A DNA stretch of 64,000 nucleotides from a virus (Duplodnaviria > Heunggongvirae > Uroviricota > Caudoviricetes): the IMG/VR virus record IMGVR_UViG_3300025778_000009; one strand, given 5' to 3'. The position numbers and the translations under genes were made by a program. Numbering within the stretch: the first letter of the stretch is position 1; each line of letters opens with the position of its first letter. The notes beneath the pieces are model-generated. The model searched no databases. It was not told the origin of the DNA and saw nothing but the letters and a program-made list of their open reading frames with translations. Positions 2,774-58,021 of this stretch are shown here, one piece after another.

Positions 2774-2806
2774 GGGGGTATAGCTTAGTGGCAAAAGCCG
2801 GTGATT
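2774..2806 (+). pseudogene. 5' half of a disrupted tRNA
   Basis: GGGGGTA-TA-GCTT-AGTGGCAA-AAGC-C-GGTGA then breaks into a late promoter; acceptor pairs 6/7 with the fragment at 3401-3429. Confidence 0.75.
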
Positions 2807-2851
2807 TTATAAATATGTGACGGAGGATAATATGTTCACAGTTTATAAAAT
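2804..2851 (+). promoter_or_regulatory. Late promoter overlapping an RBS/ATG-enclosing hairpin
   Basis: TATAAATA 2808-2815; ATTTTATAAA/TTTATAAAAT and TGTGA/TCACA enclose GGAGG and ATG 2832. Confidence 0.7.
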
Positions 2852-3320
2852 TACAAATAATATTAATAACAAACATTATATAGGGGTACATAAAACTAAC
2901 AACCCTAACGATGGATATATGGGCAGTGGTAGAGCAATTAAAGCTGCTATAACCAAATATGGTATAGATAATTTTTCAAAACATATACTTTTTATTACAG
3001 AAAATAAAGAAGAAGCTTATAATTTAGAAAAAGAACTTACAGTTGATTATTATAAAGAAGATAATTATAATATGAAACTAGGAGGTGTAGGAGGCTTTAC
3101 CAAAGAAAATTCTAAAAAAGGTATTATTGCTTTAGCTAGAATTAGTGGAAAAGCATCTTACGATCAGAAAAAAGGATATCATGCTCAAACAAAACAGCAA
3201 TTGTCTGAAAATGGTAGAAAAGGCGGTCTAAAAAATAAAGGCCGAAAAAAAGGTCCTTTATCTGAAGAAACAAAACAAAAAATTCGTGAATCTCTGTTAA
3301 AAAGAAATAAGGACCGATAG
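2832..3320 (+). CDS. GIY-YIG (Seg-like) homing endonuclease
   Basis: VYKITN...YIGVH...DGYMGSG...YN motifs; basic C-terminal tail. Confidence 0.85.
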   Translation: MFTVYKITNNINNKHYIGVHKTNNPNDGYMGSGRAIKAAITKYGIDNFSKHILFITENKEEAYNLEKELTVDYYKEDNYNMKLGGVGGFTKENSKKGIIALARISGKASYDQKKGYHAQTKQQLSENGRKGGLKNKGRKKGPLSEETKQKIRESLLKRNKDR

Positions 3321-3385
3321 CCAAGCGGTAAGGCTCACTGCTCATAACAGTGCGAGCGTAGGTTCGAATCCTACTCGGTCCACCA
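3311..3385 (+). tRNA. tRNA anticodon CAT, probably Ile2
   Basis: Full cloverleaf with CCA; C4-G69/C5-G68 as in TilS substrates. Confidence 0.85.
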
Positions 3386-3400
3386 ACTATATAAGTAAAT

Positions 3401-3429
3401 CGTAGGTTCGAGTCCTACCATCCCCACCA
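3401..3429 (+). pseudogene. 3' half of a disrupted tRNA
   Basis: GTAGG-TTCGAGT-CCTAC-CATCCCC-A-CCA with no preceding anticodon or D arm. Confidence 0.8.
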
Positions 3430-3464
3430 TACCTCATAAATATATTTTTAACAGGGAGGTACGC

Positions 3465-3764
3465 ATGAAATACCTAATACCCCTTCTATTGATATCGACA
3501 TCTGCATTGGCTCAGCAACAATCTGGACCTTGTGATACAAAAGAAAAGACACACGAACTTCTTACAAAGCAATATGGCGAAAAGCCATTTGTCGAAATGA
3601 AAGACAATTTTGGTCGTCAATTCGTTATGTATGTTAATCCAAATACAGGTACATGGACGGTTATAGCCACTAAGGATGACGTCTCTTGTGGTGTGTCTGC
3701 AGGTAAAGATCTCACACCAGCAGATCCTAAAAGGTTCGAAGATAAGAAAAGTGATCCTAGTTGA
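3465..3764 (+). CDS. Secreted hypothetical protein
   Basis: Signal peptide, two Cys, NPNTGTWT motif; SD GGAGG. Confidence 0.6.
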   Translation: MKYLIPLLLISTSALAQQQSGPCDTKEKTHELLTKQYGEKPFVEMKDNFGRQFVMYVNPNTGTWTVIATKDDVSCGVSAGKDLTPADPKRFEDKKSDPS

Positions 3765-4045
3765 TTTTTTTATTATATCATTTTAATATAATAATTATGT
3801 AATTAGAGATTTTATAATGTATAAAGTATCGGTTCATCGTGGTCGTAAATTAGTAGAACGTAATTGCTTCTCTGATATAAAAAACTCAGAGAGGCATTTT
3901 GCGTTTTTAGAGCATAGATACATAAATGAAATGCAAGACTATAAAGTAAAAATTACTATTAAAAAAGACGGCGTCGAATTAAAAAGAGCTTGATTTCTTT
4001 TTGATTATATCATATCATTATTATATAATCTAACAGGAGGTACTT

Positions 4046-4270
4046 ATGTTTGACAACAACTTCTATAAATTCTCTATCTATGATAATGGATTCTATAAGT
4101 ACGTAGTTGAGTTTGAAAAAGCTTTCCATAAAGGTAATCTCCAAGGATTAACTATTAAAGATCGTCTGCATTTTGTAGATAAAGACGATGCTGAGAAGTG
4201 GATTAAGGCTGTAGCAGGTCTTGATAAGGATGAAACTTTTTTTAATTTTAAGATTGTTGAGGCAATTTAA
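4046..4270 (+). CDS. Hypothetical early protein
   Basis: SD AGGAGG; TTGATT-N17-TATCAT upstream. Confidence 0.6.
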   Translation: MFDNNFYKFSIYDNGFYKYVVEFEKAFHKGNLQGLTIKDRLHFVDKDDAEKWIKAVAGLDKDETFFNFKIVEAI

Positions 4271-4272
4271 TA

Positions 4273-5082
4273 ATGACCGCAAATACAGAGAACGTCACAT
4301 ACAGAATGTTTGAGAACCCAGCTGCGCAAATGCTTCCAGAGGGTTCAGAAAATAAAAAAATTATTACAGCATATAAGATGTATGAAAATTCAAATGTAGA
4401 AATTGCCCGTGGTAAATTAACTCGCCCATGGATGGATGATACATCTGATAAATTTGCATATCGTTGCTTACCGCTTAATATTGCTAACATGCACGGGTGG
4501 GCAATCTATCTTAAAAAGAGTGTAGTAGTAGAGTGGAACGGTAAACCAGGTATTGATGGTATTAAAATTATAGACCAAGAAGAGAATAAAAATTTAGTTA
4601 GCTCTCATTTTGGTAGTGGCATTGTAACTTTTTACGTAGACCATTTATTTAAAACACCAGAAAATTATAGCCTTTATATTACCGGGGCTCCTAATCATAT
4701 TATACCAGGTGCGCATGCATTAACTGGAGTATATGAGTCAGATTGGGCTCCTTATTCTTTTACTATGAATTGGAAACTAACTGATCCACATAGAAAAATT
4801 ATTTTTAATGTAGACGATCCTATTTGTTTTATATTTCCAGTTCAAAGAGAACTAATAGAAGAGTTTGTATTTGAAGTGCGCGATTTAAGTTCTAATCCAG
4901 AACTAGATACAGCTTATAAAGAATTTAACGATTCAAGAAATAGCTTTTTAGAATCAATAGCGCAGGGGACAAATAAAGATACTTGGCAACGAAATTATTT
5001 TCAAGGTAAAATGCCTAGTGGCTCAAAATGCCCTGTACATAACCATAAAACAAAGTTAAGTCTTAATTTTGAGGAAAAATAA
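4273..5082 (+). CDS. DUF6065-like protein
   Basis: RPWMD...AYRCLPLNIAN.HGW...SHFGSGIVTF...ESDWAPYSFTMNWK. Confidence 0.7.
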   Translation: MTANTENVTYRMFENPAAQMLPEGSENKKIITAYKMYENSNVEIARGKLTRPWMDDTSDKFAYRCLPLNIANMHGWAIYLKKSVVVEWNGKPGIDGIKIIDQEENKNLVSSHFGSGIVTFYVDHLFKTPENYSLYITGAPNHIIPGAHALTGVYESDWAPYSFTMNWKLTDPHRKIIFNVDDPICFIFPVQRELIEEFVFEVRDLSSNPELDTAYKEFNDSRNSFLESIAQGTNKDTWQRNYFQGKMPSGSKCPVHNHKTKLSLNFEEK

Positions 5083-5083
5083 A

Positions 5084-5419
5084 ATGAAGCTGTTTTTAGT
5101 TGATGCAGTATCTTCTTTTCGTAATTCTTATGTTATTCGCTGTGAAGATATAGATCATGCTGCTGACTCTGTAACATGCAATGAGGCAGGAGAGTTTAGT
5201 CAAGAATGGTTAGGGGAAACTATTTCTCGTATCCGTGAGATTACTGAAGATGATTATCTTGCTCTTTTTGATAAAGATAATGAATATCTAAAAAGCTGGG
5301 ATATTGAACAAAAGAAGAGTCTTATTCATACAGTAGACTATGATAAAAAAGAATTTAATCCAGTAGATGATATTCCTAAATCATATGACCCATTGAGTAG
5401 CGGAAAAGCGGAGATTTGA
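5084..5419 (+). CDS. Conserved phage hypothetical protein
   Basis: EFSQEWLGETI motif; SD GAGG. Confidence 0.6.
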   Translation: MKLFLVDAVSSFRNSYVIRCEDIDHAADSVTCNEAGEFSQEWLGETISRIREITEDDYLALFDKDNEYLKSWDIEQKKSLIHTVDYDKKEFNPVDDIPKSYDPLSSGKAEI

Positions 5420-5432
5420 TCTCCGCTTTTTT
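5405..5432. terminator. Bidirectional rho-independent terminator
   Basis: AAAAGCGGAGAT-ttg-ATCTCCGCTTTT between convergent genes. Confidence 0.8.
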
Positions 5433-5433
5433 A

Positions 5434-5958
5434 TTAGTTACCTATTTTTGCTAGTTTTTCTTGGCCGCGCATAAAGCTTGTTACACCAAGTATTGCTCCA
5501 AACGCTAAGTGTATTAAACCACCATTAGATAGAGTAAGACTCTGCCAGGCAGTATATGTGGTTTGTATACCTAATCCTTTGAAGAAAACAGGTAAGAACA
5601 TAGTAATTAATGGAAAGCCTACGAAGTCCATAAAGCAAATAGCCATATAAAGCCAGCCCATTGCTGGTCTCCAATAAGCCTTTACCCAATGTTCTTCTTC
5701 TTTTTCTATCTGATGTTCTGTAACTTCTTTATCAATAGAAGTTTCAGCTAAACCAACTGATGCTTCAGCTTGTGCTGTGGCTTGAATAGAAGCCATTTGT
5801 ACAGTTTGCTGAGCCATCACTGATGATGCGGCTGAATTATTATTGTTATTTACATCAATCACAGTAACTGCAGGAGCAGGTGTGGGTGCTGCAGCAGGTG
5901 TTGGATCAACAGTAGGTGTTGATGTATTATCTGATGTTTTTGATTTAAGCAAAGCCAT
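5434..5958 (-). CDS. 3TM holin-like membrane protein
   Basis: WRPAMGWLY...GAILGV...RGQEK pattern; TM helices. Confidence 0.6.
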   Translation of the reverse strand: MALLKSKTSDNTSTPTVDPTPAAAPTPAPAVTVIDVNNNNNSAASSVMAQQTVQMASIQATAQAEASVGLAETSIDKEVTEHQIEKEEEHWVKAYWRPAMGWLYMAICFMDFVGFPLITMFLPVFFKGLGIQTTYTAWQSLTLSNGGLIHLAFGAILGVTSFMRGQEKLAKIGN

Positions 5959-6002
5959 AACAAATCCTTTATAGTATATAAATATTAAAAAAAGAGATAA
6001 TC

Positions 6003-6452
6003 ATGACAAAAAAAATTATATTCACAGCATTTACATTGCTATTTATGAGTTATGATGTTTATGCATCTGAGATGGTTTATCAATTCAGTAATCCTTCGTT
6101 TTCTGGTCAAGGATGGTCTTCTCATGTATTGACTATAGAGAATGAAGAATACACTCGTCAGCAAGCAAACATTGTTGCACAGCAACAAGCGGCCGCTGCT
6201 GCTGCAGCTGCTGCAAATAATACAAATCTTGCAAAATTTTTAAATAATCTTGAGAGTAGAATATATGCTACTCTTTCTCAACAAATTGCTTCTCAATTGT
6301 TTTCCAATCAAGGAGCTACTTCTGGTCAATTTACAGTTGCTGGTAGCACTATACAATGGAATTCTGATGGAAGCAATGTTAACATTTCAATTACCGATGC
6401 CAATGGCATTACAACCAACATGACCGTACCTTTAGGAAGTTTAGCGATATGA
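6003..6452 (+). CDS. csgF: Curli assembly protein CsgF-like
   Basis: Signal peptide then YQFSNPSFSG; adjacent to csgG; late promoter 5977-5984. Confidence 0.75.
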   Translation: MTKKIIFTAFTLLFMSYDVYASEMVYQFSNPSFSGQGWSSHVLTIENEEYTRQQANIVAQQQAAAAAAAAANNTNLAKFLNNLESRIYATLSQQIASQLFSNQGATSGQFTVAGSTIQWNSDGSNVNISITDANGITTNMTVPLGSLAI

Positions 6453-7264
6453 AAAAATATATTATTGTTTGTTTGAGTTTATTATTAGCTGCATGTTCTA
6501 CTACAGAGGATTTACATAAGAATATAGAGACAAATGCTGATAAGGCTTTACCTCTCTATCCATTGAAAAAAAGACAAAACGAATTGTTTAATTTTGGACC
6601 TTTAGATGGTCCTAAAATTCCTATTGCAATCTATAAATTTAATGATTTGACTGGACAGAGAAAACCAAATTCTAACTTTGCTGATCTAAGTACTGCAGTC
6701 ACTCAAGGTTCTGAAGGTTTTTTAATTAAATCTTTACAGGATGTAGGCAGAGGAACTTGGTTCACTCCTGTCGAAAGAGTAGACCTTGATAATCTAGTTA
6801 AAGAAAGACAGCTTATTAGATCACAAAGAGAACTGTATGAAGGTAAAGAAGCCAAGCCTCTAACACCTCTCGTTGTTGCAGGAATCATGGTTGAAGGTGG
6901 AATTGTTGGTTATGATTCCAATCTTCTTTCTGGCGGTATAGGTGCCAGAATGCTTGGTATTGGTCTAACACAGCAGTACAGAAAAGATGAAGTTACCGTA
7001 GTTTTAAGATTGATATCGATAAATACTGGAGAGATAATGTTGTCTACAGGTGCAACCAAGACAATCTACAGTGTTGGTGTCAATGGAAACCTTTTGCAAT
7101 TTGTAGATGCTGGCACAACAGCCGTAGAATTTGAAACTGGTGCCAATGTAAACGAACCTACTACATATGCTATTAGAGTTGCTATAGACCAAGCAGTGTT
7201 ATCAATGGTCAAAGAAGGTATGGATAAACAACTATGGAAAGTTAAGAAAGACGAAAAGAGGTAA
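6449..7264 (+). CDS. csgG: Curli secretion channel CsgG
   Basis: Lipobox LLAAC; FNDLTGQRKP, STAVTQG, WFTPVER, KERQLIR, GGIVGYD. Confidence 0.9.
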   Translation: MKKYIIVCLSLLLAACSTTEDLHKNIETNADKALPLYPLKKRQNELFNFGPLDGPKIPIAIYKFNDLTGQRKPNSNFADLSTAVTQGSEGFLIKSLQDVGRGTWFTPVERVDLDNLVKERQLIRSQRELYEGKEAKPLTPLVVAGIMVEGGIVGYDSNLLSGGIGARMLGIGLTQQYRKDEVTVVLRLISINTGEIMLSTGATKTIYSVGVNGNLLQFVDAGTTAVEFETGANVNEPTTYAIRVAIDQAVLSMVKEGMDKQLWKVKKDEKR

Positions 7265-7267
7265 TAA

Positions 7268-7954
7268 ATGAAATTAATAACAAGATTGGCAATGTTGTCA
7301 TTCTTGGTTATGGTTCAAAATGCTTTTGCTGCTACAAACAATGTCTATGTTGACCAAATTGGTGACGGATCAAACATTACACTAACACAAACTGGACAAG
7401 GCAACAATATAGGTGATTCTACTACACATGCGGGATTTACTGGTAATAACAACACAGTCACGGTAGAACAAATTGGAAATCAAAACACAGCAACGTTGAA
7501 TGTAAACGGTGCAGGAAATAATATTAGCTCTTCGGCAAACGGTAACAACAATACAACAAACATTCAATCAAATAGTACTGGTGCAACAATCACAGACACT
7601 ATTTCTGGTAATGACAATACCGTAAATCATACTGTTGATGGTTCTGGTACATCCACAGTTAATATCTCTTCAGACAACAATACAGTAAATGTTACTAACA
7701 CTTCAACATCTGTGTTAGGAGCACAAAGCACCGTTAATATTACAAACGGTGGTGGAAACACTGTGGACATTCTACAGGATGGAGCTGCTGGTACAAATGG
7801 CCACGTTGCCAATGTATCAATAGCCGGTGCTACAAATACAGTCAATATTCAGCAAGGTGGTAACATTGATAGTACAGTTAATGCGACAATTACAGGTTCT
7901 GGTAATTCAGTTAGCGTTAACAGTAATTATTCTGGCTTGGGCATCTCCCACTAA
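7268..7954 (+). CDS. Curlin-repeat (CsgA/CsgB-like) protein
   Basis: Signal peptide; repeated QxGxxN/GNNN units. Confidence 0.75.
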   Translation: MKLITRLAMLSFLVMVQNAFAATNNVYVDQIGDGSNITLTQTGQGNNIGDSTTHAGFTGNNNTVTVEQIGNQNTATLNVNGAGNNISSSANGNNNTTNIQSNSTGATITDTISGNDNTVNHTVDGSGTSTVNISSDNNTVNVTNTSTSVLGAQSTVNITNGGGNTVDILQDGAAGTNGHVANVSIAGATNTVNIQQGGNIDSTVNATITGSGNSVSVNSNYSGLGISH

Positions 7955-8999: not shown

Positions 9000-9340
9000 A
9001 AAAACTTATTCTTTTATGTTTGTTAATTTGTACACCAGCAAATGCAGGAAGTGCAATTATTAATCTTTCCGGAAACAATAATGTTTTAAATCTTGCACAA
9101 AGAGCAGACACAAATGTGATGTTTAGTGCCACAGATCCTAATGCAAGTAACAATGTTTATTCTATCAAGCAATCTGGTGGTGGAGAACATACTGCTAGCA
9201 TTGACATAGAAGGTAATTTCCAAAACTATAACTTCTATCTTTCACAAAATAGCTCTCAGAATCTTTCAATATCAATTCAGCAAATTTGCAACAATCCTGT
9301 TTGCTCTCCTTCATCACCATATGTATTTAATCAGTATTGA
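8996..9340 (+). CDS. Small secreted curlin-like protein
   Basis: Signal peptide; SGNNN/Q repeats. Confidence 0.5.
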   Translation: MKKLILLCLLICTPANAGSAIINLSGNNNVLNLAQRADTNVMFSATDPNASNNVYSIKQSGGGEHTASIDIEGNFQNYNFYLSQNSSQNLSISIQQICNNPVCSPSSPYVFNQY

Positions 9341-9341
9341 C

Positions 9342-11669: not shown

Positions 11670-11808
11670 TTTTTATTTTCTCATTAGTTTCAATATAAAA
11701 TTTTAAATTTGTGGACAGGAAAGTCATGAAAACTAACCTGCCCCTTAGATATACAGAATACTGTTTTTTGCCACTATACAATCGTCTAGCAACAATTTCA
11801 TACATTTA

Positions 11809-12726: not shown

Positions 12727-12757
12727 TATCTACCTACCATTTTTTTAGACCAAATCA

Positions 12758-23858: not shown

Positions 23859-23957
23859 GTGGCGTATGGTGTAATGGTAGCACAGGAAGTCCGAGACGCC
23901 TTAGGTGGAGTAGGCATTCAAAAAGCCAAGAGCAGTTCGATCCTGCTGCGCTGCACA
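23859..23957 (+). ncRNA. tRNA-like RNA with expanded anticodon region, no CCA
   Basis: D arm GTGT-AATGGTA-GCAC, T arm AGCAG-TTCGATC-CTGCT and acceptor pairing; about 35 nt replace the anticodon arm. Confidence 0.5.
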
Positions 23958-24803: not shown

Positions 24804-24837
24804 GAACTCTTAGCTCAGTTGGTAGAGCACAGGTCTT
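24804..24837 (+). pseudogene. 5' half of a disrupted tRNA (Lys-like)
   Basis: GAACTCT-TA-GCTC-AGTTGGTA-GAGC-A-CAGGT-CT-T then break. Confidence 0.75.
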
Positions 24838-24856
24838 AAGTCAAATGCTCTAGATT

Positions 24857-24886
24857 TATAAATATCAGTAAAGGAGATACTGATAT
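24857..24886 (+). promoter_or_regulatory. Late promoter plus RBS/ATG hairpin
   Basis: TATAAATA 24857-64; ATATCAGTA-aaggaga-TACTGATAT(G). Confidence 0.75.
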
Positions 24887-25448
24887 GAAAAAGTCTAAAA
24901 GTGAAGCTTGGTATGCTGCAATGGCTGCTAAAAAAGATAAAGGTACCAATCGTAATCAATATACCAAAGCTAAAGAGTTAGGATTACCCAAACCAGAAAT
25001 TTCAGAAGAGTCGCATAAAAAAAGAAGTTCTGCTAGTAAAAGACCTCATACTGAAGAAACAAAAAAGAAAATTAGTGATCATCGTATAAAATTTTTACGA
25101 GAAAATCCTGATAAGGTACCTTATAAATTAAATCATTCTTCTAAAGGTAGATCATATGCAGAAGAATATTGGAAAATAGTATTAGATACTAACAACTTAG
25201 TATATGAAGAACAATATCAAATTGGTCCTTATCAATTAGATTTTGCCTTCCCTAATTTAAAATTAGATTTAGAAATAGACGGTGATCAACATCATTTAGA
25301 TAAAAGAGTTGTTGAAAGTGATAAAAGAAGAAACCTTTATCTTGAAGAGCTTGGATGGACTGTTATAAGAGTTAAATGGTCTGACTATAAAAAACTAGAA
25401 GATAAAAAAAGTTTCGTTAATAATATAATAAGTTTACTGGACCCATAG
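24885..25448 (+). CDS. DUF559/Vsr-like endonuclease (putative homing endonuclease)
   Basis: YQLDFAF..LEIDGDQHH..SDKRRNLYLEELGWTVIR; HTEETKKKIS NUMOD3-like. Confidence 0.8.
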   Translation: MKKSKSEAWYAAMAAKKDKGTNRNQYTKAKELGLPKPEISEESHKKRSSASKRPHTEETKKKISDHRIKFLRENPDKVPYKLNHSSKGRSYAEEYWKIVLDTNNLVYEEQYQIGPYQLDFAFPNLKLDLEIDGDQHHLDKRVVESDKRRNLYLEELGWTVIRVKWSDYKKLEDKKSFVNNIISLLDP

Positions 25449-25514
25449 CACAATTGGTGGTGCAAGATGCTTTTAACTTCTAGGTTACAGGTTCAAATCC
25501 TGTTGGGTTCACCA
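25439..25514 (+). tRNA. tRNA-Lys(TTT)
   Basis: Cloverleaf, CCA; one U-U pair in anticodon stem. Confidence 0.85.
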
Positions 25515-25519
25515 ATGTT

Positions 25520-25595
25520 GTGTTGGTCGAGATTCCATTAACACTCGACAAGTCCTAGTCTGCCTGTAGTATACTGCAGTTTAGATCGGGCACCA
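25520..25595 (+). ncRNA. Small structured RNA ending in CCA
   Basis: GTCGAG/CTCGAC and TGTAG/CTGCA hairpins; ends GGGCACCA. Confidence 0.35.
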
Positions 25596-25601
25596 ATTTT
25601 T

Positions 25602-25678
25602 GGACCCTTAGCTCAATTGGTTAGAGCGCTCGCCTCTTAAGCGAATGGTTCTCAGTTCAATTCTGAGAGGGTTCACCA
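25602..25678 (+). tRNA. tRNA-Lys(CTT)
   Basis: Cloverleaf, CCA. Confidence 0.9.
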
Positions 25679-28529: not shown

Positions 28530-28606
28530 TTAATATTTTAAAGTGTTACGGTAGCACATCAGTTATGTAGAAATTGTCATGCTGATTTACACTATAAGAA
28601 AGAAAC

Positions 28607-29971: not shown

Positions 29972-30046
29972 GACCCTATGGCAGATTGGTTATGCAGGCG
30001 CCTCTAAAACGCTGTGAAGCAGGTTCAATTCCTGTTAGGGTCACCA
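29972..30046 (+). tRNA. Amber suppressor tRNA (anticodon CTA)
   Basis: GACCCTA/TAGGGTC-A-CCA; loop CT-CTA-AA; C31-A39 mismatch. Confidence 0.8.
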
Positions 30047-38769: not shown

Positions 38770-38827
38770 GCCCTAGTAGTCCAATTGGTAGAGGCGCCGG
38801 CTTCAAACTCCGGATGATGGGGGTTCG
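38770..38827 (+). pseudogene. tRNA-Leu(CAA) truncated in the T loop
   Basis: Intact up to GGGGG-TTCG; no 3' T strand or acceptor. Confidence 0.75.
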
Positions 38828-39052
38828 TTTCATGATCATCTCCTAGTTGAAAGATCATAATAAATTCAATCATTCAATCAGTAATATAAACATGAAATAA
38901 TGTATAAGACGATTTGAGTACTCGCGTGCCAATTCGTTGAACTCAAGCCCGAAAGGTGGAAAAAGACTTGATCTACTATCCTCGTCATGCCACCTTAACA
39001 TTATACTTTTTATTTATAAATAGTATTAAATATTTCATTTAGGTAATAATAT

Positions 39053-40324
39053 ATGTCAAGACCATACACAATTGTACCACTTTCTGGTCAAATAACTATG
39101 ACCGATCTAGACAATGCATTTCATTTAGGTACAGATCTTGAAGCATATAGAGGTGTTCTCTATTTTAAACCTTCTGTTGATGACAATCCAAGGTATTTCC
39201 CTGCTAGCAATTTAGATATGGATATGTTCCATGGTACATGGGCAGTTACTCCACCTTCAGTAATAAATTTAAATGGTGGTGAAGCAGGCACTTTTTATAT
39301 TCCTATTTTTAGAAATTTTATTATTATTCAGGTATGGGGTGCTGGTGGTGTATCTAGCGACTTAGCTGGTGCAGGCGGCGGCGCTTTTAGACAATTTAAT
39401 TATTGTTTAGATAGTAGAGCAAATTATATTAATGTTAATTATGGAGACACATTTACATATAGAGTAGGAGTAAGTGTTAATGATCCTACAGGAGATTTAA
39501 AAAATTCTGTATGGAATGGTATTAAAGTATATGGCGGGGGATCAGCTTATTCTGTATATGGTGCAGGAGGGGCCGGCTGGAATTCTGCAGGCGGTATAGA
39601 TAGTAGCAGAGGTTGGTTTCAATCACCTGGTGATCCACAAATAGAACAATATGGAAGCTTATCAAATAGTCCGTATAATGTACCTTCAGGTAGAGGTAGT
39701 GGTTACTATGATGGTAATTTAAGCCCGTTTGGAGGTGGGGGCGGCCAGTCTGGTCTAGATAAATGGAATGCTGGTCCTTCCGGAGGGTATGCAATATTCG
39801 GTGGCGGCGGTGGCGGACAAGCATGGGGCGGAAATAGTAAATACGGTGGTGCTGGTCGTGGTATGTTAAGAAACGGCTCATCACAATATGGCGGTCAAAT
39901 AGGTCAAGTACCTGGTGGTGCAGACGCTAATGGTCTTATTAAAATTTTTATAGATATTACTCCACCTTTAGACGCCACCAGCGATATGGTATTATACGGT
40001 GCACCTCCCGGAAATGATGCTCCCACAAGCGGAGGACCATGGGCCAATGTGCCTAGTAATCCGGGTGCAATATCGTGGCCTCCACCTCCGCCACCACCCC
40101 CTCCTCCTCCTCCACCACCCCCTCCTGTTGGGGGTCCTGGAAGTAGTGGCGGAACGGATATTTTTAGTTTTTCTTTGGGTATTCCAAGTCTTGGACCTCC
40201 TCCACCACCACCACCACCTGGAGTACCGCCTCCGCCTGCTCCACCCCCTCCTCCTCCGCCACCCCCTCCTCCTCCTGCTCCACCACCACCTGATTATGGA
40301 AGCGGTGAAGGCGGCCACGGCTAA
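39053..40324 (+). CDS. Gly-rich late (virion?) protein with poly-Pro tail
   Basis: QVWGAGG and GGGG motifs; long Pro runs; TATAAATA 39015. Confidence 0.7.
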   Translation: MSRPYTIVPLSGQITMTDLDNAFHLGTDLEAYRGVLYFKPSVDDNPRYFPASNLDMDMFHGTWAVTPPSVINLNGGEAGTFYIPIFRNFIIIQVWGAGGVSSDLAGAGGGAFRQFNYCLDSRANYINVNYGDTFTYRVGVSVNDPTGDLKNSVWNGIKVYGGGSAYSVYGAGGAGWNSAGGIDSSRGWFQSPGDPQIEQYGSLSNSPYNVPSGRGSGYYDGNLSPFGGGGGQSGLDKWNAGPSGGYAIFGGGGGGQAWGGNSKYGGAGRGMLRNGSSQYGGQIGQVPGGADANGLIKIFIDITPPLDATSDMVLYGAPPGNDAPTSGGPWANVPSNPGAISWPPPPPPPPPPPPPPPPVGGPGSSGGTDIFSFSLGIPSLGPPPPPPPPGVPPPPAPPPPPPPPPPPPAPPPPDYGSGEGGHG

Positions 40325-52123: not shown

Positions 52124-52125
52124 AC

Positions 52126-52863: not shown

Positions 52864-53321
52864 TGATTAAGATTGCTCATCGTGGTTTATTTGAAAGTCA
52901 AAGTAACGACCGTGATTTAGAAAATAAACCTGAACAAATTGAATTAGCTTTAGCTAAAGGATTTGATGCAGAGATTGACTTACAGGTAATTAATAATAAA
53001 TTATTTTTAGGTCACGATACTCCTGATTATGAGATAAATGAATCTTTTCTATTAAAAAGAGGTTTATGGATTCATGCCAAGAATGCTGATTCGCTTCGAT
53101 ATTTGGCCACTAAATTGCCTAACCTAAATTATTTTGCACATGCCAATGATCCAGTTGTTATTACGACTCATGGTTGGTTATGGTATCATTGCTATCATCT
53201 TAAAGATATGAAGAGAGGTAGAGCCATTGCTGTTATGCCTGAATACACAATAAGAGATGTTAATTCATTTAATTCTTTAGATTGTGATGGTATTTGTTCT
53301 GACTTCGTTGGCCTTTTATGA
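52860..53321 (+). CDS. PLC-like/GDPD phosphodiesterase
   Basis: IAHRG, EN, EID, LGHD, WIHAKN, GICSD. Confidence 0.75.
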   Translation: MMIKIAHRGLFESQSNDRDLENKPEQIELALAKGFDAEIDLQVINNKLFLGHDTPDYEINESFLLKRGLWIHAKNADSLRYLATKLPNLNYFAHANDPVVITTHGWLWYHCYHLKDMKRGRAIAVMPEYTIRDVNSFNSLDCDGICSDFVGLL

Positions 53322-54034
53322 GAACAGCACTTATATTAACCGGTCATATGAGATGCTGGAAGCAAATGATTCCTCATATGACAGAAAAATATATTAATAA
53401 GTATAATCCTGATATATTTATTAGTTGTTGGGAGAACGAAGGTTGGTGGAAATGGGGGAATGAAAAGGGATTTCATGAAAATTCTAATCATGTAGATCCT
53501 GATGAGATAAGATCTCTCCTTAACCCTGTTGAAATGAGATATGAATATTTTGATCCTCATGAACCGTATTTTACTGAGAGAGCAAAACGTTATCCTAATT
53601 CATATATTTCCCCTAAAAATATTTTATCGATGACTTATAAATGGCTTGATGGATTTTATCTATTAAAGCATCATATGGCTATTACTGGTAAACAGTATGA
53701 TCTAGTTATTAAAACTAGAACTGACTTAGAGATAATGGGTGATTTGCCTGAATTTGATTTAGATAAATTTTATATCATCTATAACCACTACAACCAAGGT
53801 GGTCATAATGATGTGTTTTATGCTAGTAACTATCAAAAAGCTGAGCATGTATCTAATTTTATTCTTAATTTTGACTCATTATATTCTCAAACAAACACAG
53901 TCTGTACACATCTAATGACGCAAAAACATTTTGAAAATGCAGAAATAGACGTGATTTCTTTAAATATTCCATATAGACTACATAATACACCTTGGGGTCA
54001 GCACCAAGATGTTAACAGATTTATTAAACAATAA
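53318..54034 (+). CDS. Putative glycosyltransferase-like protein
   Basis: ALILTGHMR...YDLVIKTRTD. Confidence 0.55.
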   Translation: MRTALILTGHMRCWKQMIPHMTEKYINKYNPDIFISCWENEGWWKWGNEKGFHENSNHVDPDEIRSLLNPVEMRYEYFDPHEPYFTERAKRYPNSYISPKNILSMTYKWLDGFYLLKHHMAITGKQYDLVIKTRTDLEIMGDLPEFDLDKFYIIYNHYNQGGHNDVFYASNYQKAEHVSNFILNFDSLYSQTNTVCTHLMTQKHFENAEIDVISLNIPYRLHNTPWGQHQDVNRFIKQ

Positions 54035-54106
54035 ATAATAAATCGTGTTTTGTTTGACACGAGAAGCATAAGGAGAGTATCCTTATGTCAACCAAAAGGA
54101 CAAACA

Positions 54107-54574
54107 ATGAAGAAACTACTATTAGCCCTAGTGATGGGGTGTAGTATGTCCGTTTCTGCATCATACGCCAAAGATACTTCGTCAAATATATCGTCTAATA
54201 CATCGAAATATACATCGTTAGATATAAAAGAATTAGTTACAACTATTGCAGAAAGACATCACGTTCCATTTGATTTAGCGCATGCTGTAATCTATGTGGA
54301 ATCAAAATATAATCCTAATGTTATGGGTCAAAAAGGTGAATATGGCTTAGGTCAGATTCGCTGTGGAACAGCCAAGAGCATGGGATTTAAAGGCAAGTGT
54401 GAAGAGTTGCACGATGCTAAGAATAACTTAGAATATAGCATGGCTTATCTTCGTTATGCATTAGATCAAACAGATAACGATATCTGTAAAGCAGCATCTT
54501 ATTACGGTAGCGGGTTGATCCCTAAATCCAATAAAACCGCATACTGCCGAAAAATACTTGACAATTTAAATTAA
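54107..54574 (+). CDS. SLT lytic transglycosylase
   Basis: Signal peptide; VIYVESKYNP, GLGQI, NLEYSMAYL. Confidence 0.85.
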   Translation: MKKLLLALVMGCSMSVSASYAKDTSSNISSNTSKYTSLDIKELVTTIAERHHVPFDLAHAVIYVESKYNPNVMGQKGEYGLGQIRCGTAKSMGFKGKCEELHDAKNNLEYSMAYLRYALDQTDNDICKAASYYGSGLIPKSNKTAYCRKILDNLN

Positions 54575-54614
54575 TTACTATATTATAATAGTCAGCGTAT
54601 TAACTGACTATTTT

Positions 54615-54688
54615 TGGAGGATCGTATAATGGAAGTACTAAGGACTTTGACTCCTTCAATCTAGGTTCGAATCCTAGTCCTCCAGCCA
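54615..54688 (+). tRNA. tRNA-Gln(TTG)
   Basis: U1-A72 cloverleaf, CCA. Confidence 0.92.
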
Positions 54689-54725
54689 TAAATAAATTTT
54701 TAATAGTTTTGCGAAAGGGTTGCAA

Positions 54726-55088
54726 ATGAATAAGACTTGGGGCTATCATCTTCTATTGGATTGTACAGCTGGCGATAAAGAGCTTATTGGTTCAAGAGAC
54801 AACATTTATAATTTTACTAAAGAATTAGTAGTGGCCATTGATATGGTTGCTTTTGGTGAACCATGGATTGAACGTTTTGCAACCCATGCAGCAGACAAAG
54901 CTGGCTACAGCATGTGTCAAATGATTGAGACATCAAACATTACTGGTCATTTCTGTGACAATGATGGTAATTTTTATATTGATGTTTTTTCATGTAAGCC
55001 GTTTGAAAATGAAACAGTTATTAGTGTAGTTGATAAGTACTTTAAGCCTGAAAAGGTTCGTACTCATTTTATCTCACGTGACGCTTGA
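54726..55088 (+). CDS. speD: S-adenosylmethionine decarboxylase proenzyme
   Basis: GYHLLLD, IETSNITGH, YIDVFSCK. Confidence 0.85.
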   Translation: MNKTWGYHLLLDCTAGDKELIGSRDNIYNFTKELVVAIDMVAFGEPWIERFATHAADKAGYSMCQMIETSNITGHFCDNDGNFYIDVFSCKPFENETVISVVDKYFKPEKVRTHFISRDA

Positions 55089-55099
55089 GACTAATTTAT

Positions 55100-55176
55100 C
55101 GCGGGATAGCGCAGTCAGGTAGAGCACCGGACTCATAATCCGGAGGTCGTTGGTTCGAATCCATCTCCCGCAACCA
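55100..55176 (+). tRNA. tRNA-Met(CAT), initiator-type C1-A72
   Basis: Cloverleaf, CCA; anticodon stem CCGGA. Confidence 0.88.
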
Positions 55177-55193
55177 AACAATAAAGGTGATCT

Positions 55194-55949
55194 ATGAAAA
55201 TTGAACATGCTTACATTTTGTATATTGATAACCCTGAAGCTACTAACTACATGGAGCAATGTAAGCAGTCTTGCATAGACCATAGCGTACCAGTCACCTC
55301 ATTTCTCGGATTTAAGCTTCCTACAACGGTTGCTGAAGTTAAAGAGAAATGGGGTGTTCGTATAGACCCTGTTGTTCAAGAACGTATTGATGAACCTGTA
55401 TTTCGTATTTGGTTTAAAGAACAACTTTGTACTGCAGGACATATTGCAATGTGGAAAGAGATTGCTAAGCAAGATAAAGCTTATGCTATCTTTGAACATG
55501 ATGCGATCGTAAAACGTAATTTTGATGGTATTGAAGTTAATGATGGTGAAATAGTTTTCTTAGGATTCCGTGTTGATCACCGTGATGATTATGAATGTAT
55601 AAATGATGTATTTACAAAAATTCCAATGAATAAATTTGAAGGTACTCATGCATACGCTATTACCCCTAATACTTGTAAATATCTTTTGGAAGCTATTGAA
55701 CAAAGAGAATATCTCCCAGTAGGAATCTCTGTAGATTTTTATCTTGGTGTGCAGAATCTCTTTAGACTCAATATGTTTGTTGCTGACCCTGCACCTGTAG
55801 TTGCAGCAGTAGAAGATAAAGTATCAGAAACACAACCAGAAGGTAAAGTTGCAAAATACAATATGCTACCACCTGATGGGTTTCTTAAAGGTCTAGTTAA
55901 ACCAGAGAAATATTCAATTGATGAAAAAAATGGATGGTTGGTATTCTAA
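55194..55949 (+). CDS. GT25-like glycosyltransferase
   Basis: C.AGH..MW, IFEHDA, GTHAYAITP. Confidence 0.65.
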   Translation: MKIEHAYILYIDNPEATNYMEQCKQSCIDHSVPVTSFLGFKLPTTVAEVKEKWGVRIDPVVQERIDEPVFRIWFKEQLCTAGHIAMWKEIAKQDKAYAIFEHDAIVKRNFDGIEVNDGEIVFLGFRVDHRDDYECINDVFTKIPMNKFEGTHAYAITPNTCKYLLEAIEQREYLPVGISVDFYLGVQNLFRLNMFVADPAPVVAAVEDKVSETQPEGKVAKYNMLPPDGFLKGLVKPEKYSIDEKNGWLVF

Positions 55950-56458
55950 TGAAAGTAAATATTGGCAAATATCCTAAGAGCGATAAAAAAGAACGTAAAA
56001 TTTCAGTAAAGCTAGATTACTGGGATACATGGTCCATGGATCATACTCTTGCTCTTATTATTCATCCGATGCTAGTACAATTACAAAAAACAAAGCATGG
56101 CTCTCCTTTTACTGACGATAATGATGTTCCGGAAGAACTTCGTTCTACATCAGCTCCTCCTAAAGAAAATGAATGGGATACAGATGATAACCATTTTAAG
56201 CGTTGGGAATGGATTCTTGATGAAATGATTTGGGCATTTGCTCAACAATTAGATGATAATGCATCTAGTCAATTTCATTCAGGAAAAATTGACTTACAAT
56301 TTAAAGAAGTTGAGGTTGATGGTGAAAAATATAGTGAAATGGTAAGAGGTCCATTAGATACTCACGTTTTTGATAAGGAGGGTCACGATGCTTGGCAAGC
56401 CAGAAAAACAAACGGATTTAAACTCTTTGGTAAGTATTATGAGGCTCTCTGGGACTGA
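55949..56458 (+). CDS. Conserved phage hypothetical protein
   Basis: WDTWSMDHTLALII.P, WILDEMIWAF, LFGKYY..LWD. Confidence 0.7.
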   Translation: MKVNIGKYPKSDKKERKISVKLDYWDTWSMDHTLALIIHPMLVQLQKTKHGSPFTDDNDVPEELRSTSAPPKENEWDTDDNHFKRWEWILDEMIWAFAQQLDDNASSQFHSGKIDLQFKEVEVDGEKYSEMVRGPLDTHVFDKEGHDAWQARKTNGFKLFGKYYEALWD

Positions 56459-56617
56459 AACACATAATTATTCAGTTGATGCTTTAAAAAAAGCTGCATT
56501 CGTTGACGAGCTTAATAATGTTCTTATTCATGCGGAAAAAACAGTTGCAAAAGATATCATAGTAGAATATCTTAATATAAGAGTTAATGAGATTAATAAA
56601 AGGTACAAATAGGTTAT

Positions 56618-56709
56618 GGGCGTGGGTGTTGGTACACGAGAGGAGCTTATATCTCCTTTAGCGGCAGATTACCGTTCTAGACTTGGTTCGAATCCGAGCG
56701 CGCCTACCA
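56618..56709 (+). tRNA. tRNA-Ile(TAT)-like with long variable arm
   Basis: GGGCGTG/CGCGCCT-A-CCA; GAGGAG-CTTATAT-CTCCTT; AGCGG/CCGTT arm. Confidence 0.75.
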
Positions 56710-56726
56710 ATTTCTAGGAGACTAAA

Positions 56727-56999
56727 ATGCCAACCGTTACGACCGAAGTTGATTTTGATTTAGAAACAATCGATGACTATGACCTCATAGATGAGCTAGA
56801 GAGACGAGGTTATGAGATAATCGAAAACGGTAGAGAAGACGACGATCTCATAGATATTTTAACTGATCGTGGATATTCAGTCATTGTTAGAGATTATTTA
56901 GAAGAACTCTATAGTACCTACTTGACAATGTCTCCTGAGTTTTTTCAGAAAGAATTGAAGAAATTATTCCGAGAGAAGTTAGACGTAAATATATACTAA
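56727..56999 (+). CDS. Hypothetical acidic protein
   Basis: SD AGGAG; internal DDxLIDxLxxRGY repeat. Confidence 0.6.
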   Translation: MPTVTTEVDFDLETIDDYDLIDELERRGYEIIENGREDDDLIDILTDRGYSVIVRDYLEELYSTYLTMSPEFFQKELKKLFREKLDVNIY

Positions 57000-57006
57000 T
57001 ACCAAT

Positions 57007-57044
57007 GGTCACATAGCTTAACTGGAATAAGAGCAAGAGATTTC
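57007..57044 (+). pseudogene. 5' half of disrupted tRNA-Arg(TC-)
   Basis: GGTCACA-TAGCTTAACTGGAATAAGAGC-A-AGAGA-TT-TC then break. Confidence 0.7.
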
Positions 57045-57065
57045 ATTTTATATAAATACCTATAT

Positions 57066-57148
57066 GCGAACGTAGCCGAGGGGAGCTTCTACCTCCTTAG
57101 ACGTAACTGGAGCTGTAAATGGGGGTTCGAATCCCTCCGTTCGCGCCA
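57066..57148 (+). tRNA. D-armless tRNA-Arg(TCT)-like RNA
   Basis: GCGAACG/CGTTCGC-G-CCA; GGGGAG-CTTCTAC-CTCCTT; canonical T arm; only 7 nt between acceptor and anticodon arm. Confidence 0.7.
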
Positions 57149-57161
57149 TAGGAAACAAAAA

Positions 57162-57902
57162 ATGAAAAAAACATTGTGTAATAAATGTAATAATTATTTT
57201 GCTAATAGAGCAGGCAATTATAATCGACATCACATGGTATGTGACGGAAATTATATTTTACCTGAACAAAGAGGTGTTTGTAAATATTGCAATATTAAGT
57301 TTGATCTAAATGATAAACCTAAAGGCTGGATGGCTAACCATAGCAGATGGTGTGATAGCAATTTAGATAGAGAAAAATATAAAAAATCAAATAAAACTAA
57401 TATTAAATCTATGCAGACTCCAGAAGCTAGAAAAAAAGCTGTAGAAGGTATAAAAAAAGCATGGCAAGATGGTAAATATAATCATTGTGATCACAAAACA
57501 TTTTTAGGTAGAACTCATTCAGATAAATCTAAAAAATTAATGAGTGAGAGTGCTTTAAAAGCAAAGCACAGGAGAATTTTAAGATCAACTAGAAAATATA
57601 TTTGTAAGGATGGTAGTGAAGTTTTATTAGATTCTTCTTGGGAAGAACAGTTAGCAATAAGATTGGATCAATTGAATATTAATTGGATAAGGCCGAAGGA
57701 CCCTATTCAATGGTTAGATAAAGAAGGAAAAACACACAATTATTTTCCCGATTTTTATTTAACCGATTATAACATTTATATTGATCCCAAAAATGATATA
57801 GTATATAATATAACAATAACTAAAATAGAAGCTCTTAAAATTATTTTGCCTAATCTTATTATTTTAAGATCTTTAGAAGAGTGTAAGAATTTTAAAATAT
57901 AA
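57162..57902 (+). CDS. PD-(D/E)xK (TnsA-like) endonuclease with Zn-finger and NUMOD3 segments
   Basis: CxxC pairs; FLGRTHSDKSKKLMS; DSSWE...YFPDFYL...YIDPK. Confidence 0.75.
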   Translation: MKKTLCNKCNNYFANRAGNYNRHHMVCDGNYILPEQRGVCKYCNIKFDLNDKPKGWMANHSRWCDSNLDREKYKKSNKTNIKSMQTPEARKKAVEGIKKAWQDGKYNHCDHKTFLGRTHSDKSKKLMSESALKAKHRRILRSTRKYICKDGSEVLLDSSWEEQLAIRLDQLNINWIRPKDPIQWLDKEGKTHNYFPDFYLTDYNIYIDPKNDIVYNITITKIEALKIILPNLIILRSLEECKNFKI

Positions 57903-57903
57903 T

Positions 57904-57980
57904 GTCCGTTTAGCCCAGTGGTAGGAGGCAAGGCGCTTAAAACGCCTACAGGACTGGTTCGAATCCAGTAACGGACACCA
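57904..57980 (+). tRNA. tRNA-Leu(TAA), short variable loop
   Basis: Cloverleaf, A73, CCA. Confidence 0.88.
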
Positions 57981-58021
57981 AAATCTCCAAAGTGTCGGTT
58001 CGAATCCCACCATCCGCACCA
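57981..58021 (+). pseudogene. 3' half of disrupted tRNA (Leu-like)
   Basis: AAA-TCTCC-AAAGT-GTCGG-TTCGAAT-CCCAC-CATCCGC-A-CCA. Confidence 0.75.

Follow-up and report, generated by a model that had tools for sequence, protein, structure and literature searches.

Organisation of the cassettes

The DNA studied was a window of 64,000 nucleotides, that is, the whole stretch analysed, from a large uncultured phage of the Caudoviricetes (IMG/VR record IMGVR_UViG_3300025778_000009). Three nuclease cassettes, at loci a, b and c, lie inside tRNA genes of this window; in each the resident tRNA is split at the anticodon and a spare tRNA is brought in. A sequence-only reading had proposed such tRNA-breaking cassettes at these loci, and all three were confirmed by ARAGORN, Rfam and alignments with relatives. 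Every cassette consists of the TATAAATA motif, one gene for a predicted site-specific nuclease and one or more complete genes for a tRNA or tRNA-like RNA, and takes the place of the middle of the resident gene or genes from the anticodon loop onward. The cargo anticodon equals that of the interrupted gene in every cassette, the specificity of the broken gene at locus a (presumably CAT) being read from one relative only, L087.

Locus a contains the following features:

2774–2806, + strand: broken tRNA 5' half with acceptor 5' strand, D arm and anticodon stem 5' strand, ending at T33
2808–2815, + strand: TATAAATA motif at the cassette 5' edge, in the same place in L200 and L310
2832–3320, + strand: GIY-YIG (SegE/SegB-like) homing endonuclease gene, 162 aa, with a NUMOD3-like tail (Pfam, PHROG)
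3311–3385, + strand: intact cargo tRNA(CAT) (ARAGORN; Rfam 66.5 bits), overlapping the end of the nuclease ORF
3397–3429, + strand: resident tRNA 3' remnant with variable loop, T arm, acceptor 3' strand and CCA

The 5' half gave a truncated match to positions 1-32 of the Rfam tRNA model (16.7 bits, E 0.1), the break lying after T33. Positions 3392-3429 matched the 3' end of the model, with the T arm, acceptor 3' strand and CCA within 3397-3429 (E 3.5e-6), and the 3' strand of the anticodon stem is absent. A decayed version of the 5' remnant precedes the GIY-YIG homologues in L310 and L312. The empty site is seen in L087, where an intact tRNA(CAT) occupies exactly the position of locus a and is followed by the same downstream gene; the cargo is 75% identical to this native tRNA.

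Locus b contains the following features:

24804 to about 24838, + strand: resident tRNA-Lys(TTT) 5' half, broken after CTT of the anticodon loop (positions 32-34)
24857–24864, + strand: TATAAATA motif, conserved in L169 and L170
24885–25448, + strand: DUF559/MTES_1575 (Vsr-like PD-(D/E)xK) endonuclease gene, 187 aa, with a NUMOD3 motif (Pfam)
25439–25514, + strand: intact cargo tRNA-Lys(TTT) (ARAGORN, Rfam), overlapping the ORF end

The 5' half matched positions 1-34 of the tRNA model (truncated, 21.4 bits, E 0.006), and a clear 3' half was sought at this locus and not found, in agreement with the sequence-only reading. The layout of locus b recurs in L169 and L170, with the same half and the same junction. 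The empty site in L089 and L090 holds an intact tRNA-Lys(TTT) followed by Lys(CTT); compared with L089, the cargo Lys(TTT) is 74% identical to the native gene and the neighbouring Lys(CTT) 90%. The cargo Lys of L170 carries a long variable arm.

Locus c contains the following features:

57007–57044, + strand: resident tRNA-Arg(TCT) 5' half, broken after TTTC (C35), aligning with the intact genes of relatives
57051–57058, + strand: TATAAATA motif, conserved in most cassette variants and one base off in L284 and L293
57066–57148, + strand: cargo Arg(UCU) tRNA-like RNA (Rfam tRNA 34 bits, 57066-57145)
57162–57902, + strand: PD-(D/E)xK endonuclease gene c, 246 aa (AlphaFold2 fold; PHROG endonuclease/resolvase families)
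57904–57980, + strand: intact cargo tRNA-Leu(TAA) (ARAGORN, Rfam)
57981–58021, + strand: resident tRNA-Leu(TAA) 3' half, starting in the anticodon loop and aligning with intact Leu(TAA) genes

The two halves align column-for-column with the intact Arg(TCT) and Leu(TAA) genes of L009, L011, L012, L013, L014 and L016, the T stem and acceptor strand of the Leu half being decayed. These two genes stand 2-6 nt apart at the empty sites of L009, L010/L011, L012, L013, L014 and L016. Relatives without the cassettes had been expected to hold intact alleles, and tRNAs of the predicted specificity were found at all three sites. The cargo Leu(TAA) and the native Leu(TAA) of L009 share only 65% identity. 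The c family was found in 11 distinct contexts (45-100% nuclease identity), all with the order Arg 5' half, TATAAATA (one base off in two), Arg(UCU) tRNA or tRNA-like RNA and nuclease; the Arg half ends in (C/T)TTC or TTT, which places the break at C35 or at the base before it. L292 and L293 also retain the Arg 3' remnant that goes with the 5' half, and L200 carries c-type and a-type cassettes in tandem.

tRNA fragments also occur elsewhere in the window (28541-28563, 38770-38830 and 23865-23884) with no recognisable nuclease beside them; broken tRNAs therefore also come from other insertions.

The TATAAATA motif begins 1-20 nt past each break (at 2808, 24857 and 57051) and equals the T4 late-promoter consensus. 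A late promoter had been assigned to each cassette; the conserved motif stands, and its promoter function is putative. The motif was not enriched across the window (9 copies against 8.2 expected).

The Arg(UCU) cargo RNA of locus c

The Arg cargo was not called as a tRNA by ARAGORN. Its acceptor, anticodon and T arms are present, 8 nt replace the D arm, and an insert of about 20-22 nt with a D-loop-like AACTGGA follows the anticodon arm; the Rfam alignment deletes 15 D-arm positions of the model. The stems covary: 92.4% of cells pair across 7 variants, compared with 47-56% when the partners are slid, and 14 pairs show compensatory changes on both sides, a value reached by 0 of 500 shuffles, for a set of only 7 sequences. 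A canonical four-arm cloverleaf was rejected, there being no D arm between the acceptor and anticodon arms. The Arg(TCT)-like RNA of the sequence-only reading is thus retained as a conserved, covarying tRNA-like RNA, judged from its alignment to be without a normal D arm, and not as a normal tRNA. It may not be a chargeable tRNA. The same RNA is also found in a nuclease-free tRNA array (L297).

Nuclease families

Nuclease a matched Pfam PF19835 (SegE_GIY-YIG) with 26.5 bits, above the cutoff of 25, and PF01541 with 20.2 bits, under the cutoff of 22.6, while PHROG 314 'homing endonuclease' was matched at E 2.8e-37. Nuclease b scored above the cutoffs for both PF04480 (40.6 bits, cutoff 20.6) and PF18741 (40.9 bits, cutoff 38.2). 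The Pfam search with nuclease c gave no match, and nuclease c is therefore placed outside any named family. Besides a nuclease core at the C terminus, the protein has two Cys/His motifs and a segment resembling NUMOD3. The AlphaFold2 model (pLDDT 87) was similar to TnsA (Z 9.2 over 114 residues, rmsd 3.3), Vsr (Z 7.4), VRR_NUC (Z 6.9) and Hjc (Z 5.2), and also to I-Bth0305I (Z 5.0) and I-Ssp6803I (PDB 2ost, Z 4.1). D157, E161, D197, D208 and K210 were invariant in 29 homologues. The model thus gives nuclease c a predicted PD-(D/E)xK core fold.

The assignments first made, GIY-YIG for a, DUF559/Vsr for b and PD-(D/E)xK for c, hold by Pfam, PHROG and structure similarity. The description of three unrelated families that had converged was overstated. 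The alignment of nuclease b with nuclease c is weak (hhalign probability 60%, E 9e-5), and as both are Vsr-like PD-(D/E)xK enzymes with NUMOD3 motifs, two superfamilies are represented here and not three.

Homologues of nuclease a in metagenomes numbered 247, and those of nuclease c at least 568. The cassette layout recurs with distant nuclease homologues (45-80% identity), and the nuclease families retain their tRNA partner despite deep divergence, two of them being tied to single isoacceptors, Arg-UCU for c and Lys-UUU for b. Homologues of b with at least 43% identity adjoin tRNA-Lys(TTT) in all 16 of 16 distinct loci. Close GIY-YIG homologues adjoin CAT or TAT tRNAs and more distant ones Gln, Asp, Glu or Trp.

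Mobility of the cassettes

The window and L007 show 3 differences over 57004-58184 (99.7% identity), whereas their flanks are 65-88% identical. Nuclease c is 100% identical in L007 and 98.4% in L008, compared with 83-86% for the neighbouring protein. The two junctions of L008 are those of the window, but the alleles of its halves are its own; the Leu half is the same as the functional allele of L009. The recombination tracts stop at the cassette edges, and the tract ends differ in L007 and L008. The near identity of c amid diverged flanks and the separate half alleles of L008 are therefore read as the footprint of homing by recombination. The alignments show that cassette c moved recently between diverged phages by recombination with variable co-conversion, the exchange ending inside the tRNA halves or a short way beyond them. 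Only for c were near-identical copies seen against diverged backgrounds, none being found in IMG/VR for a or b. Presence/absence polymorphism between related genomes was seen at all three loci.

Interpretation and alternative explanations

The cassettes are probably free-standing (intron-less) homing-endonuclease cassettes with a tRNA gene as their home. The sequence-only reading is partly supported, by the empty sites, the mobility of c, the lack of splicing and the constant tRNA partner of each nuclease family; its claim of three unrelated families was not upheld.

Repair at the RNA level, either by degenerate group I introns or by joining of the split tRNA halves after transcription, is very improbable. 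In its favour, the insertion point in the anticodon loop is shared with group I introns of bacterial tRNA genes, and I-Ssp6803I, to which the model of nuclease c is similar at Z 4.1, is a PD-(D/E)xK homing endonuclease housed in such an intron. Against this, Rfam Intron_gpI was sought in every cassette at E up to 1-10 with no match, and the position of TATAAATA so soon after each break leaves no room there for a 5' ribozyme domain. The halves cannot be joined because those of c are an Arg 5' half and a Leu 3' half with non-complementary acceptor strands, because locus a is without the anticodon stem 3' strand and because locus b is without a 3' half. A group I intron in a tRNA gene was accordingly rejected, no ribozyme core being detected and the halves making no complete tRNA; splicing of the halves, which would have spoken against the proposal, is contradicted by the sequence. 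An integrase-type tRNA-targeting element was also rejected, since the nuclease is the sole ORF of each cassette and there is no direct repeat of a tRNA 3' part; the only repetition in the cassettes is a loose likeness between the T arms of cargo and remnant.

Recombination scars in a hot spot, with the nucleases as Seg-like passengers that have no specificity for the broken gene and the adjoining tRNA as a co-converted flank instead of compensation, offer a rather unlikely account. Recombination is frequent in phage tRNA arrays, and tRNA fragments can be left behind by any gene that inserts: in the window, a Leu(CAA)-like gene is broken in the T loop (38770-38830) before a 423-aa ORF without a nuclease family, and a Trp fragment (28541-28563) adjoins another such ORF. 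The varied tRNAs beside distant GIY-YIG homologues and the lack of isotype preference among SegB homologues (PMC13096335) are in the same direction. Scars would not, however, be expected to repeat the Arg(UCU) break at the same nucleotide, or at the one before it, in 11 contexts with nuclease identity as low as 45%, to place every one of the 16 DUF559 loci by Lys(TTT), to match the cargo anticodon always to the broken gene, or to end the c tracts at the cassette edges. It is also unlikely that the payload came first, the cargo tRNAs being selected for themselves, for instance to resist host anticodon nucleases acting on Lys(UUU) or Arg tRNAs, and spread by the nuclease; this would be compatible with homing. 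SegB-driven tRNA amplification acts as counter-defence, with tRNA-Tyr against Septu (PMC13096335), and the conserved rewired Arg RNA, which also exists without a nuclease in L297, and the long variable arm of the L170 cargo would suit such a role. The anticodon loops of the Lys and Leu cargoes are, however, identical to the native ones.

Comparison with known systems

No paper describing a tRNA-overwriting cassette arrangement was found in the literature. T4 SegB is a free-standing GIY-YIG nuclease gene in a phage tRNA cluster that supports intronless homing (PMC2330249, PMC13096335; Belle et al. 2002 as cited there). Like SegB and other Seg/Mob genes, the cassettes are free-standing nucleases in phage tRNA clusters, present or absent among relatives; Seg/Mob genes are inherited with nearby tRNA genes through double-strand-break repair and co-conversion, and SegB recognises a motif of tRNA genes. 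That motif, in the T loop, is common to many tRNAs, SegB shows no isotype preference, and its gene is placed between others, whereas the cassettes lie inside one tRNA gene, split it at the anticodon, leave dead halves and bring a like-for-like replacement, and two of their nuclease families are bound to single isoacceptors.

I-Ssp6803I in Synechocystis tRNA-fMet is the homing endonuclease of an anticodon-loop group I intron (review PMC3984707). The cassettes share with tRNA group I introns the anticodon-loop insertion, the PD-(D/E)xK fold and an essential, conserved gene as the target. Since they hold no ribozyme, the host gene is not restored by splicing, and a second gene within the element takes over its function. 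In the 'Fractured genes' of environmental phage-like DNA (Dassa et al. 2009, PMC2677866) a conserved gene is likewise split by a free-standing homing-endonuclease gene and the damage compensated, there by protein trans-splicing with split inteins and here by a spare copy of an RNA gene. Integrase-mediated elements also insert into tRNA genes, in many cases at the anticodon or the T loop, and leave tRNA function intact. They encode an integrase, however, and the gene is made whole by a duplicate of its 3' part, present as a direct repeat; in the cassettes the nuclease is the only ORF, and both an integrase and a repeat of this kind are absent.

Proposed mechanism

When a phage with the cassette meets one without it in a mixed infection, the nuclease would cleave the empty allele. 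The cut would fall within or close to that part of the anticodon stem-loop which the nuclease's own genome has split or lost. By analogy with SegB, the nucleases might cut elsewhere, for example in the T loop, and at many distant DUF559 and GIY-YIG homologue loci the nuclease merely lies between intact tRNAs with no half detectable. The break would then be mended by recombination, the tRNA halves and the adjoining genes serving as homology arms, and the cassette would be copied in the process. If homing into functional genes happened again and again, this would account for the many halves that still resemble good tRNA sequence. The resident tRNA would be destroyed for good, because there is no ribozyme, while the cargo tRNA, more diverged than neighbouring orthologues as in the Lys pair of locus b, would retain decoding capacity for the phage and presumably escape cutting.

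Arrangement of the cassettes and comparison with cassette-free relatives

Relatives were gathered from IMG/VR and public metagenome assemblies, using the flanking genes and the nucleases themselves as queries; an IMG/VR search with the methyltransferase as query gave no relatives. No close relative of the window was found among the deposited phage genomes (INPHARED), where only short tRNA, Seg or ThyX matches were obtained, and nuclease c is present letter for letter on other contigs of up to 229 kb, so the source is probably a large uncultured phage. The 64-kb window contains 31 tRNA genes (ARAGORN), all on the + strand amid small phage-type genes. The features analysed are listed below, cargo being a tRNA or tRNA-like gene carried by a cassette and TATAAATA a motif resembling the T4 late-promoter consensus.

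Cassette features in the window
2774-3429: locus a, broken tRNA 5' half, GIY-YIG nuclease, 3' remnant
24804-25514: locus b, Lys 5' half, nuclease b, cargo tRNA-Lys(TTT)
57007-58021: locus c, in the order tRNA 5' part ending TTTC, TATAAATA, 83-nt tRNA-like RNA, 246-aa ORF (nuclease c), tRNA-Leu(TAA), tRNA 3' part ending CCA
57066-57148: Arg cargo RNA of locus c, 7-bp acceptor stem, 5-bp anticodon stem with loop CUUCUAC, T arm, GCCA

The 83-nt RNA of locus c has a UCU anticodon loop and the cargo tRNA-Leu(TAA) is intact. Six relatives without the insert (contigs L009, L010/L011, L012, L013, L014 and L016; flanking genes 70-75% identical) carry an intact tRNA-Arg(TCT) followed after 2-6 nt by an intact tRNA-Leu(TAA). 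Alignment with these relatives revealed that the left fragment corresponds to Arg positions 1-35 and the right fragment to Leu from the anticodon loop through CCA; cassette c therefore stands in place of the Arg 3' part, the spacer and the Leu 5' part. The two halves belong to separate genes, with acceptor strands that do not complement each other.

The closest relatives at locus b, contigs L089 and L090 (75% identity across the upstream region), have an intact tRNA-Lys(TTT) exactly at the window's 5' half, which matches tRNA model positions 1-34, and then the same tRNA-Lys(CTT). The cargo Lys(TTT) and its native counterpart in L089 share 74% identity, as against 90% for the neighbouring Lys(CTT), which fits a foreign origin of the cargo. 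A Lys 3' remnant was sought in the 86-nt spacer between the cargo and Lys(CTT) (25515-25601). Likeness to the native 3' end is loose and confined to the final ~14 nt, too little to claim a remnant. The spacer shows two hairpins and a terminal CACCA, and a weak YrlA-like Rfam match (21.5 bits, E 0.08) extends over 25460-25658. No copy nearly identical to cassette b turned up elsewhere.

For locus a, contig L087 has flanks 76-85% identical to the window. At this place it has an intact tRNA(CAT), with a pstS-like gene before it and, immediately after it, the 99-aa gene found in the window downstream of the 3' remnant; read from L087, the broken gene would have had CAT specificity. The pstS-like gene (L087:1508-2473) encodes a PstS-like phosphate-binding protein and is part of the variable gene content at this hot spot. 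The 5' half gave a modest match to tRNA positions 1-32 (16.7 bits) and the 3' remnant a good match to the tRNA 3' end. Since their acceptor strands pair at 6 of 7 positions, both remnants may come from one gene, about ten nt of which are missing, comprising the anticodon and the 3' strand of the anticodon stem.

The comparison with cassette-free relatives proposed in the sequence-only reading recovered intact alleles at locus a (L087), locus b (L089, L090) and locus c (six relatives). The observation of cassettes splitting tRNA genes was confirmed, and the core of its interpretation is supported by comparative evidence.

Mobility of cassette c

Cassette c is common to the window and contigs L007 and L008. 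The window and L007 showed three differences over 57004-58184, with 65-88% identity on either side. The identity of nuclease c to the window protein is 100% in L007 and 98.4% in L008, and that of the neighbouring 174-aa protein is 86% and 83%, respectively. The high-identity tract of L008 ends at both junctions, whose sequences are the same as in the window. The Arg half of L008 departs from that of the window at many positions, and its Leu half matches, without a difference, the functional allele of L009, which lacks the cassette; in the Leu half of the window the T stem is broken and the acceptor strand has diverged. One insertion architecture in differing backgrounds, with recombination end points at varying distances, is the pattern expected of homing by double-strand-break repair with co-conversion. 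The shortness of the tracts suggests that the initiating break would lie close to the insertion point. An extra 221-aa ORF, again variable gene content at a hot spot, is located immediately upstream of cassette c in both L007 and L008 (L007:2496-3161).

Nuclease families and their tRNA partners

Nuclease c gave no Pfam match and nothing in a PDB sequence search; it matches PHROG endonuclease and resolvase families and has at least 568 homologues in metagenomes. The AlphaFold2 model built from 29 homologues (pLDDT 87) was compared with known folds. Residues 138-246 resemble TnsA (Z 9.2) and Vsr (Z 7.4), also VRR_NUC, Bax1 and Hjc, and among homing endonucleases I-Bth0305I (Z 5.0) and I-Ssp6803I (Z 4.1); Foldseek against the PDB returned weak rows only, the best being TnsA (E 0.06). 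Residues D157, E161, D197, D208 and K210 are invariant in the 29 homologues. The fold matches and invariant residues bear out the earlier assignment of nuclease c to PD-(D/E)xK. Nuclease b is a DUF559/MTES_1575 protein with a NUMOD3 motif, and the two proteins align weakly (hhalign probability 60%, E 9e-5). The three nucleases had been called unrelated families; b and c are both Vsr-like PD-(D/E)xK enzymes with NUMOD3-type segments, and what stands is two superfamilies in the window.

The surroundings of nuclease c homologues were fetched at 80, 74, 59, 57, 53, 51, 50, 46 and 45% identity (contigs L280-L294 and L200), giving eleven distinct contexts. In all eleven, an Arg(UCU) 5' half ending (C/T)TTC, or one base earlier, lies upstream of the nuclease gene and is followed at 0-10 nt by a TATAAATA-type motif (L284 and L293 differ from it by one base); an Arg(UCU) gene also precedes the nuclease, as a canonical tRNA in L286-288 and L200 and as the atypical RNA elsewhere. 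L292 and L293 retain the matching Arg 3' remnant directly after the nuclease gene, so the original event was probably insertion into a single Arg gene; the window version, extending into Leu with a Leu cargo, is on that view a derived form.

A tRNA-Lys(TTT) is found within a few hundred bases of nuclease b homologues at 16 of 16 distinct IMG/VR loci (43-63% identity). The layout of locus b recurs in L169 (63%) and L170 (55%): the Lys 5' half stops at CT or CTT, AAAT-type filler leads to TATAAATA, and the nuclease is followed by an intact Lys(TTT). L185 and L187 instead have Lys 3' remnants, and more distant homologues merely adjoin an intact Lys(TTT). The cargo Lys(TTT) of L170 (3542-3625) has a long, type II-like variable arm. 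Next to it comes a chimeric pseudogene resembling Lys(CTT), the 3' end of which pairs with the Lys 5' half lying upstream.

Nuclease a has 247 homologues in metagenomes. Among GIY-YIG homologues, L200-202 (43% identity) have, immediately after a c-type cassette, a 5' half that ends in CT, followed by TATAAATA, the nuclease and tRNA(CAT). Cassettes of types a and c are thus adjacent elsewhere, as L200 (1700-3700) carries both in tandem: Arg 5' half, TATAAATA motif, tRNA-Arg(TCT), PD-(D/E)xK nuclease, tRNA-Leu(TAA), another 5' half, TATAAATA motif, GIY-YIG nuclease and tRNA(CAT). The nuclease gene overlaps tRNA(CAT) in L311 (78%), and L310 (70%) has tRNA-Ile(TAT) instead of CAT, preceded by the same 5' remnant in decayed form. 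A fourth cassette of like design, absent from the window, was found at L008:2377-3141. In it a tRNA-Gln 5' half, interrupted where the anticodon loop begins, leads into TATAAATA / TATATAAATA and a GIY-YIG gene, after which comes a tRNA-Gln(TTG) that is intact and diverged. The GIY-YIG family appears looser about its tRNA partner than the families of nucleases b and c.

Structure of the Arg cargo RNA

In the Arg cargo, 8 nt replace the D arm and 22 nt including AACUGGA come after the anticodon arm. The comparison covered seven variants, among them a second subtype (L291, L294) and a nuclease-free array copy (L297). The three stems are kept with many compensatory changes: 92.4% of cells pair, a figure that falls to 47-56% on sliding the partners, and 14 pairs are changed on both sides. 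The Arg cargo is therefore a conserved structured molecule and no decayed gene. A fourth helix, linker (UAGC) with insert (GCUG), is paired in 84% of cells, and in L292 one of its pairs has gone from G-C to A-U; on the basis of seven sequences, a rewired D helix is no more than a lead. Of ten hits from scanning metagenomes with a pattern for the Arg-like RNA, one was true, that in L297, whose D-arm-less Arg(UCU) tRNA-like RNA (1731-1809) lies in a tRNA array with neither nuclease nor 5' half adjoining; such an RNA thus exists apart from the cassette.

The TATAAATA motif and other tRNA fragments

On the + strand of the window TATAAATA occurs 9 times against 8.2 expected from base composition, so that it is no general feature of the window; four of the nine copies are at tRNA-fragment junctions. 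Its conservation at cassette 5' edges in many phages speaks for a functional motif, which by analogy with T4 would be a late promoter.

Further tRNA fragments are present in the window without a nuclease alongside, and homing therefore does not account for every broken tRNA. The ORFs adjoining the fragments at 23865, 28541 and 38770 gave no family hits. A Leu(CAA)-like gene broken in the T loop (38770-38830) directly follows an intact tRNA-Leu(TAG); past it come ~170 nt possibly structured, TATAAATA (39015) and a 423-aa ORF (39015-40324 region) without Pfam or PHROG match, which may be another tRNA-breaking insertion with no recognisable nuclease. At 28541-28563 there is a match to positions 8-30 of tRNA-Trp genes, 44 nt upstream of an intact, unusual tRNA-Trp and after a 110-aa ORF that TATAAATA (28159) precedes. 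A His-like 5' fragment lies at 23865-23884. The tRNA at 29972-30046 has anticodon CTA and would read the amber codon (ARAGORN label 'Pyl', Rfam tRNA 52 bits); a similar CTA tRNA lies just downstream of a GIY-YIG homologue in contig L312.

Discussion

No cassette gave a match to a group I intron model at E up to 1-10. Joining of the halves as a split tRNA was rejected, the halves being unable to make a tRNA, and an integrase-type element is excluded as each cassette has one ORF. The cassettes are probably a form of intronless homing.

Invasion of a conserved gene has its nearest parallels in the homing endonucleases that inhabit introns of tRNA anticodon loops, and in 'fractured genes', which split inteins rescue (PMC2677866). 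In the tRNA cluster of T4, the free-standing GIY-YIG homing endonuclease SegB recognises a T-loop motif and spreads its own gene with nearby tRNA genes (PMC2330249). A 2026 study mapped SegB cuts inside tRNA genes, found the SegB-tRNA association to be general and without isotype preference, and described SegB-driven tRNA-Tyr amplification as counter-defence (PMC13096335). Full-text searches, with incomplete coverage of the literature, gave no account of a cassette that lacks an intron, divides a tRNA gene at its anticodon and brings the replacement with it.

Homing endonucleases are not known to invade essential genes unless hidden in a self-splicing intron or intein; otherwise they occupy intergenic sites. 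The cassettes indicate a third way, in which the gene is broken and a spare is brought along. A broader and rather doubtful proposal is that these are isoacceptor-specific 'tRNA gene drives' widespread in environmental phages, in which nuclease families drawn from two or more superfamilies are each directed at the anticodon region of one tRNA gene, overwrite that gene intron-free and install their own diverged tRNA; the Arg(UCU) cargo would then be a topologically rewired tRNA, its D helix enclosing the anticodon arm, that evades the nuclease and possibly also anticodon nucleases of the host. The cassettes would partly explain why phage tRNA arrays show turnover and chimerism and are littered with pseudogenes. 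They provide three or more nuclease families with likely targets readable directly from empty-site alleles, bring an unusual conserved Arg(UCU) tRNA-like RNA to attention, and through their cargo tRNAs offer a possible link to tRNA-targeting host defences.
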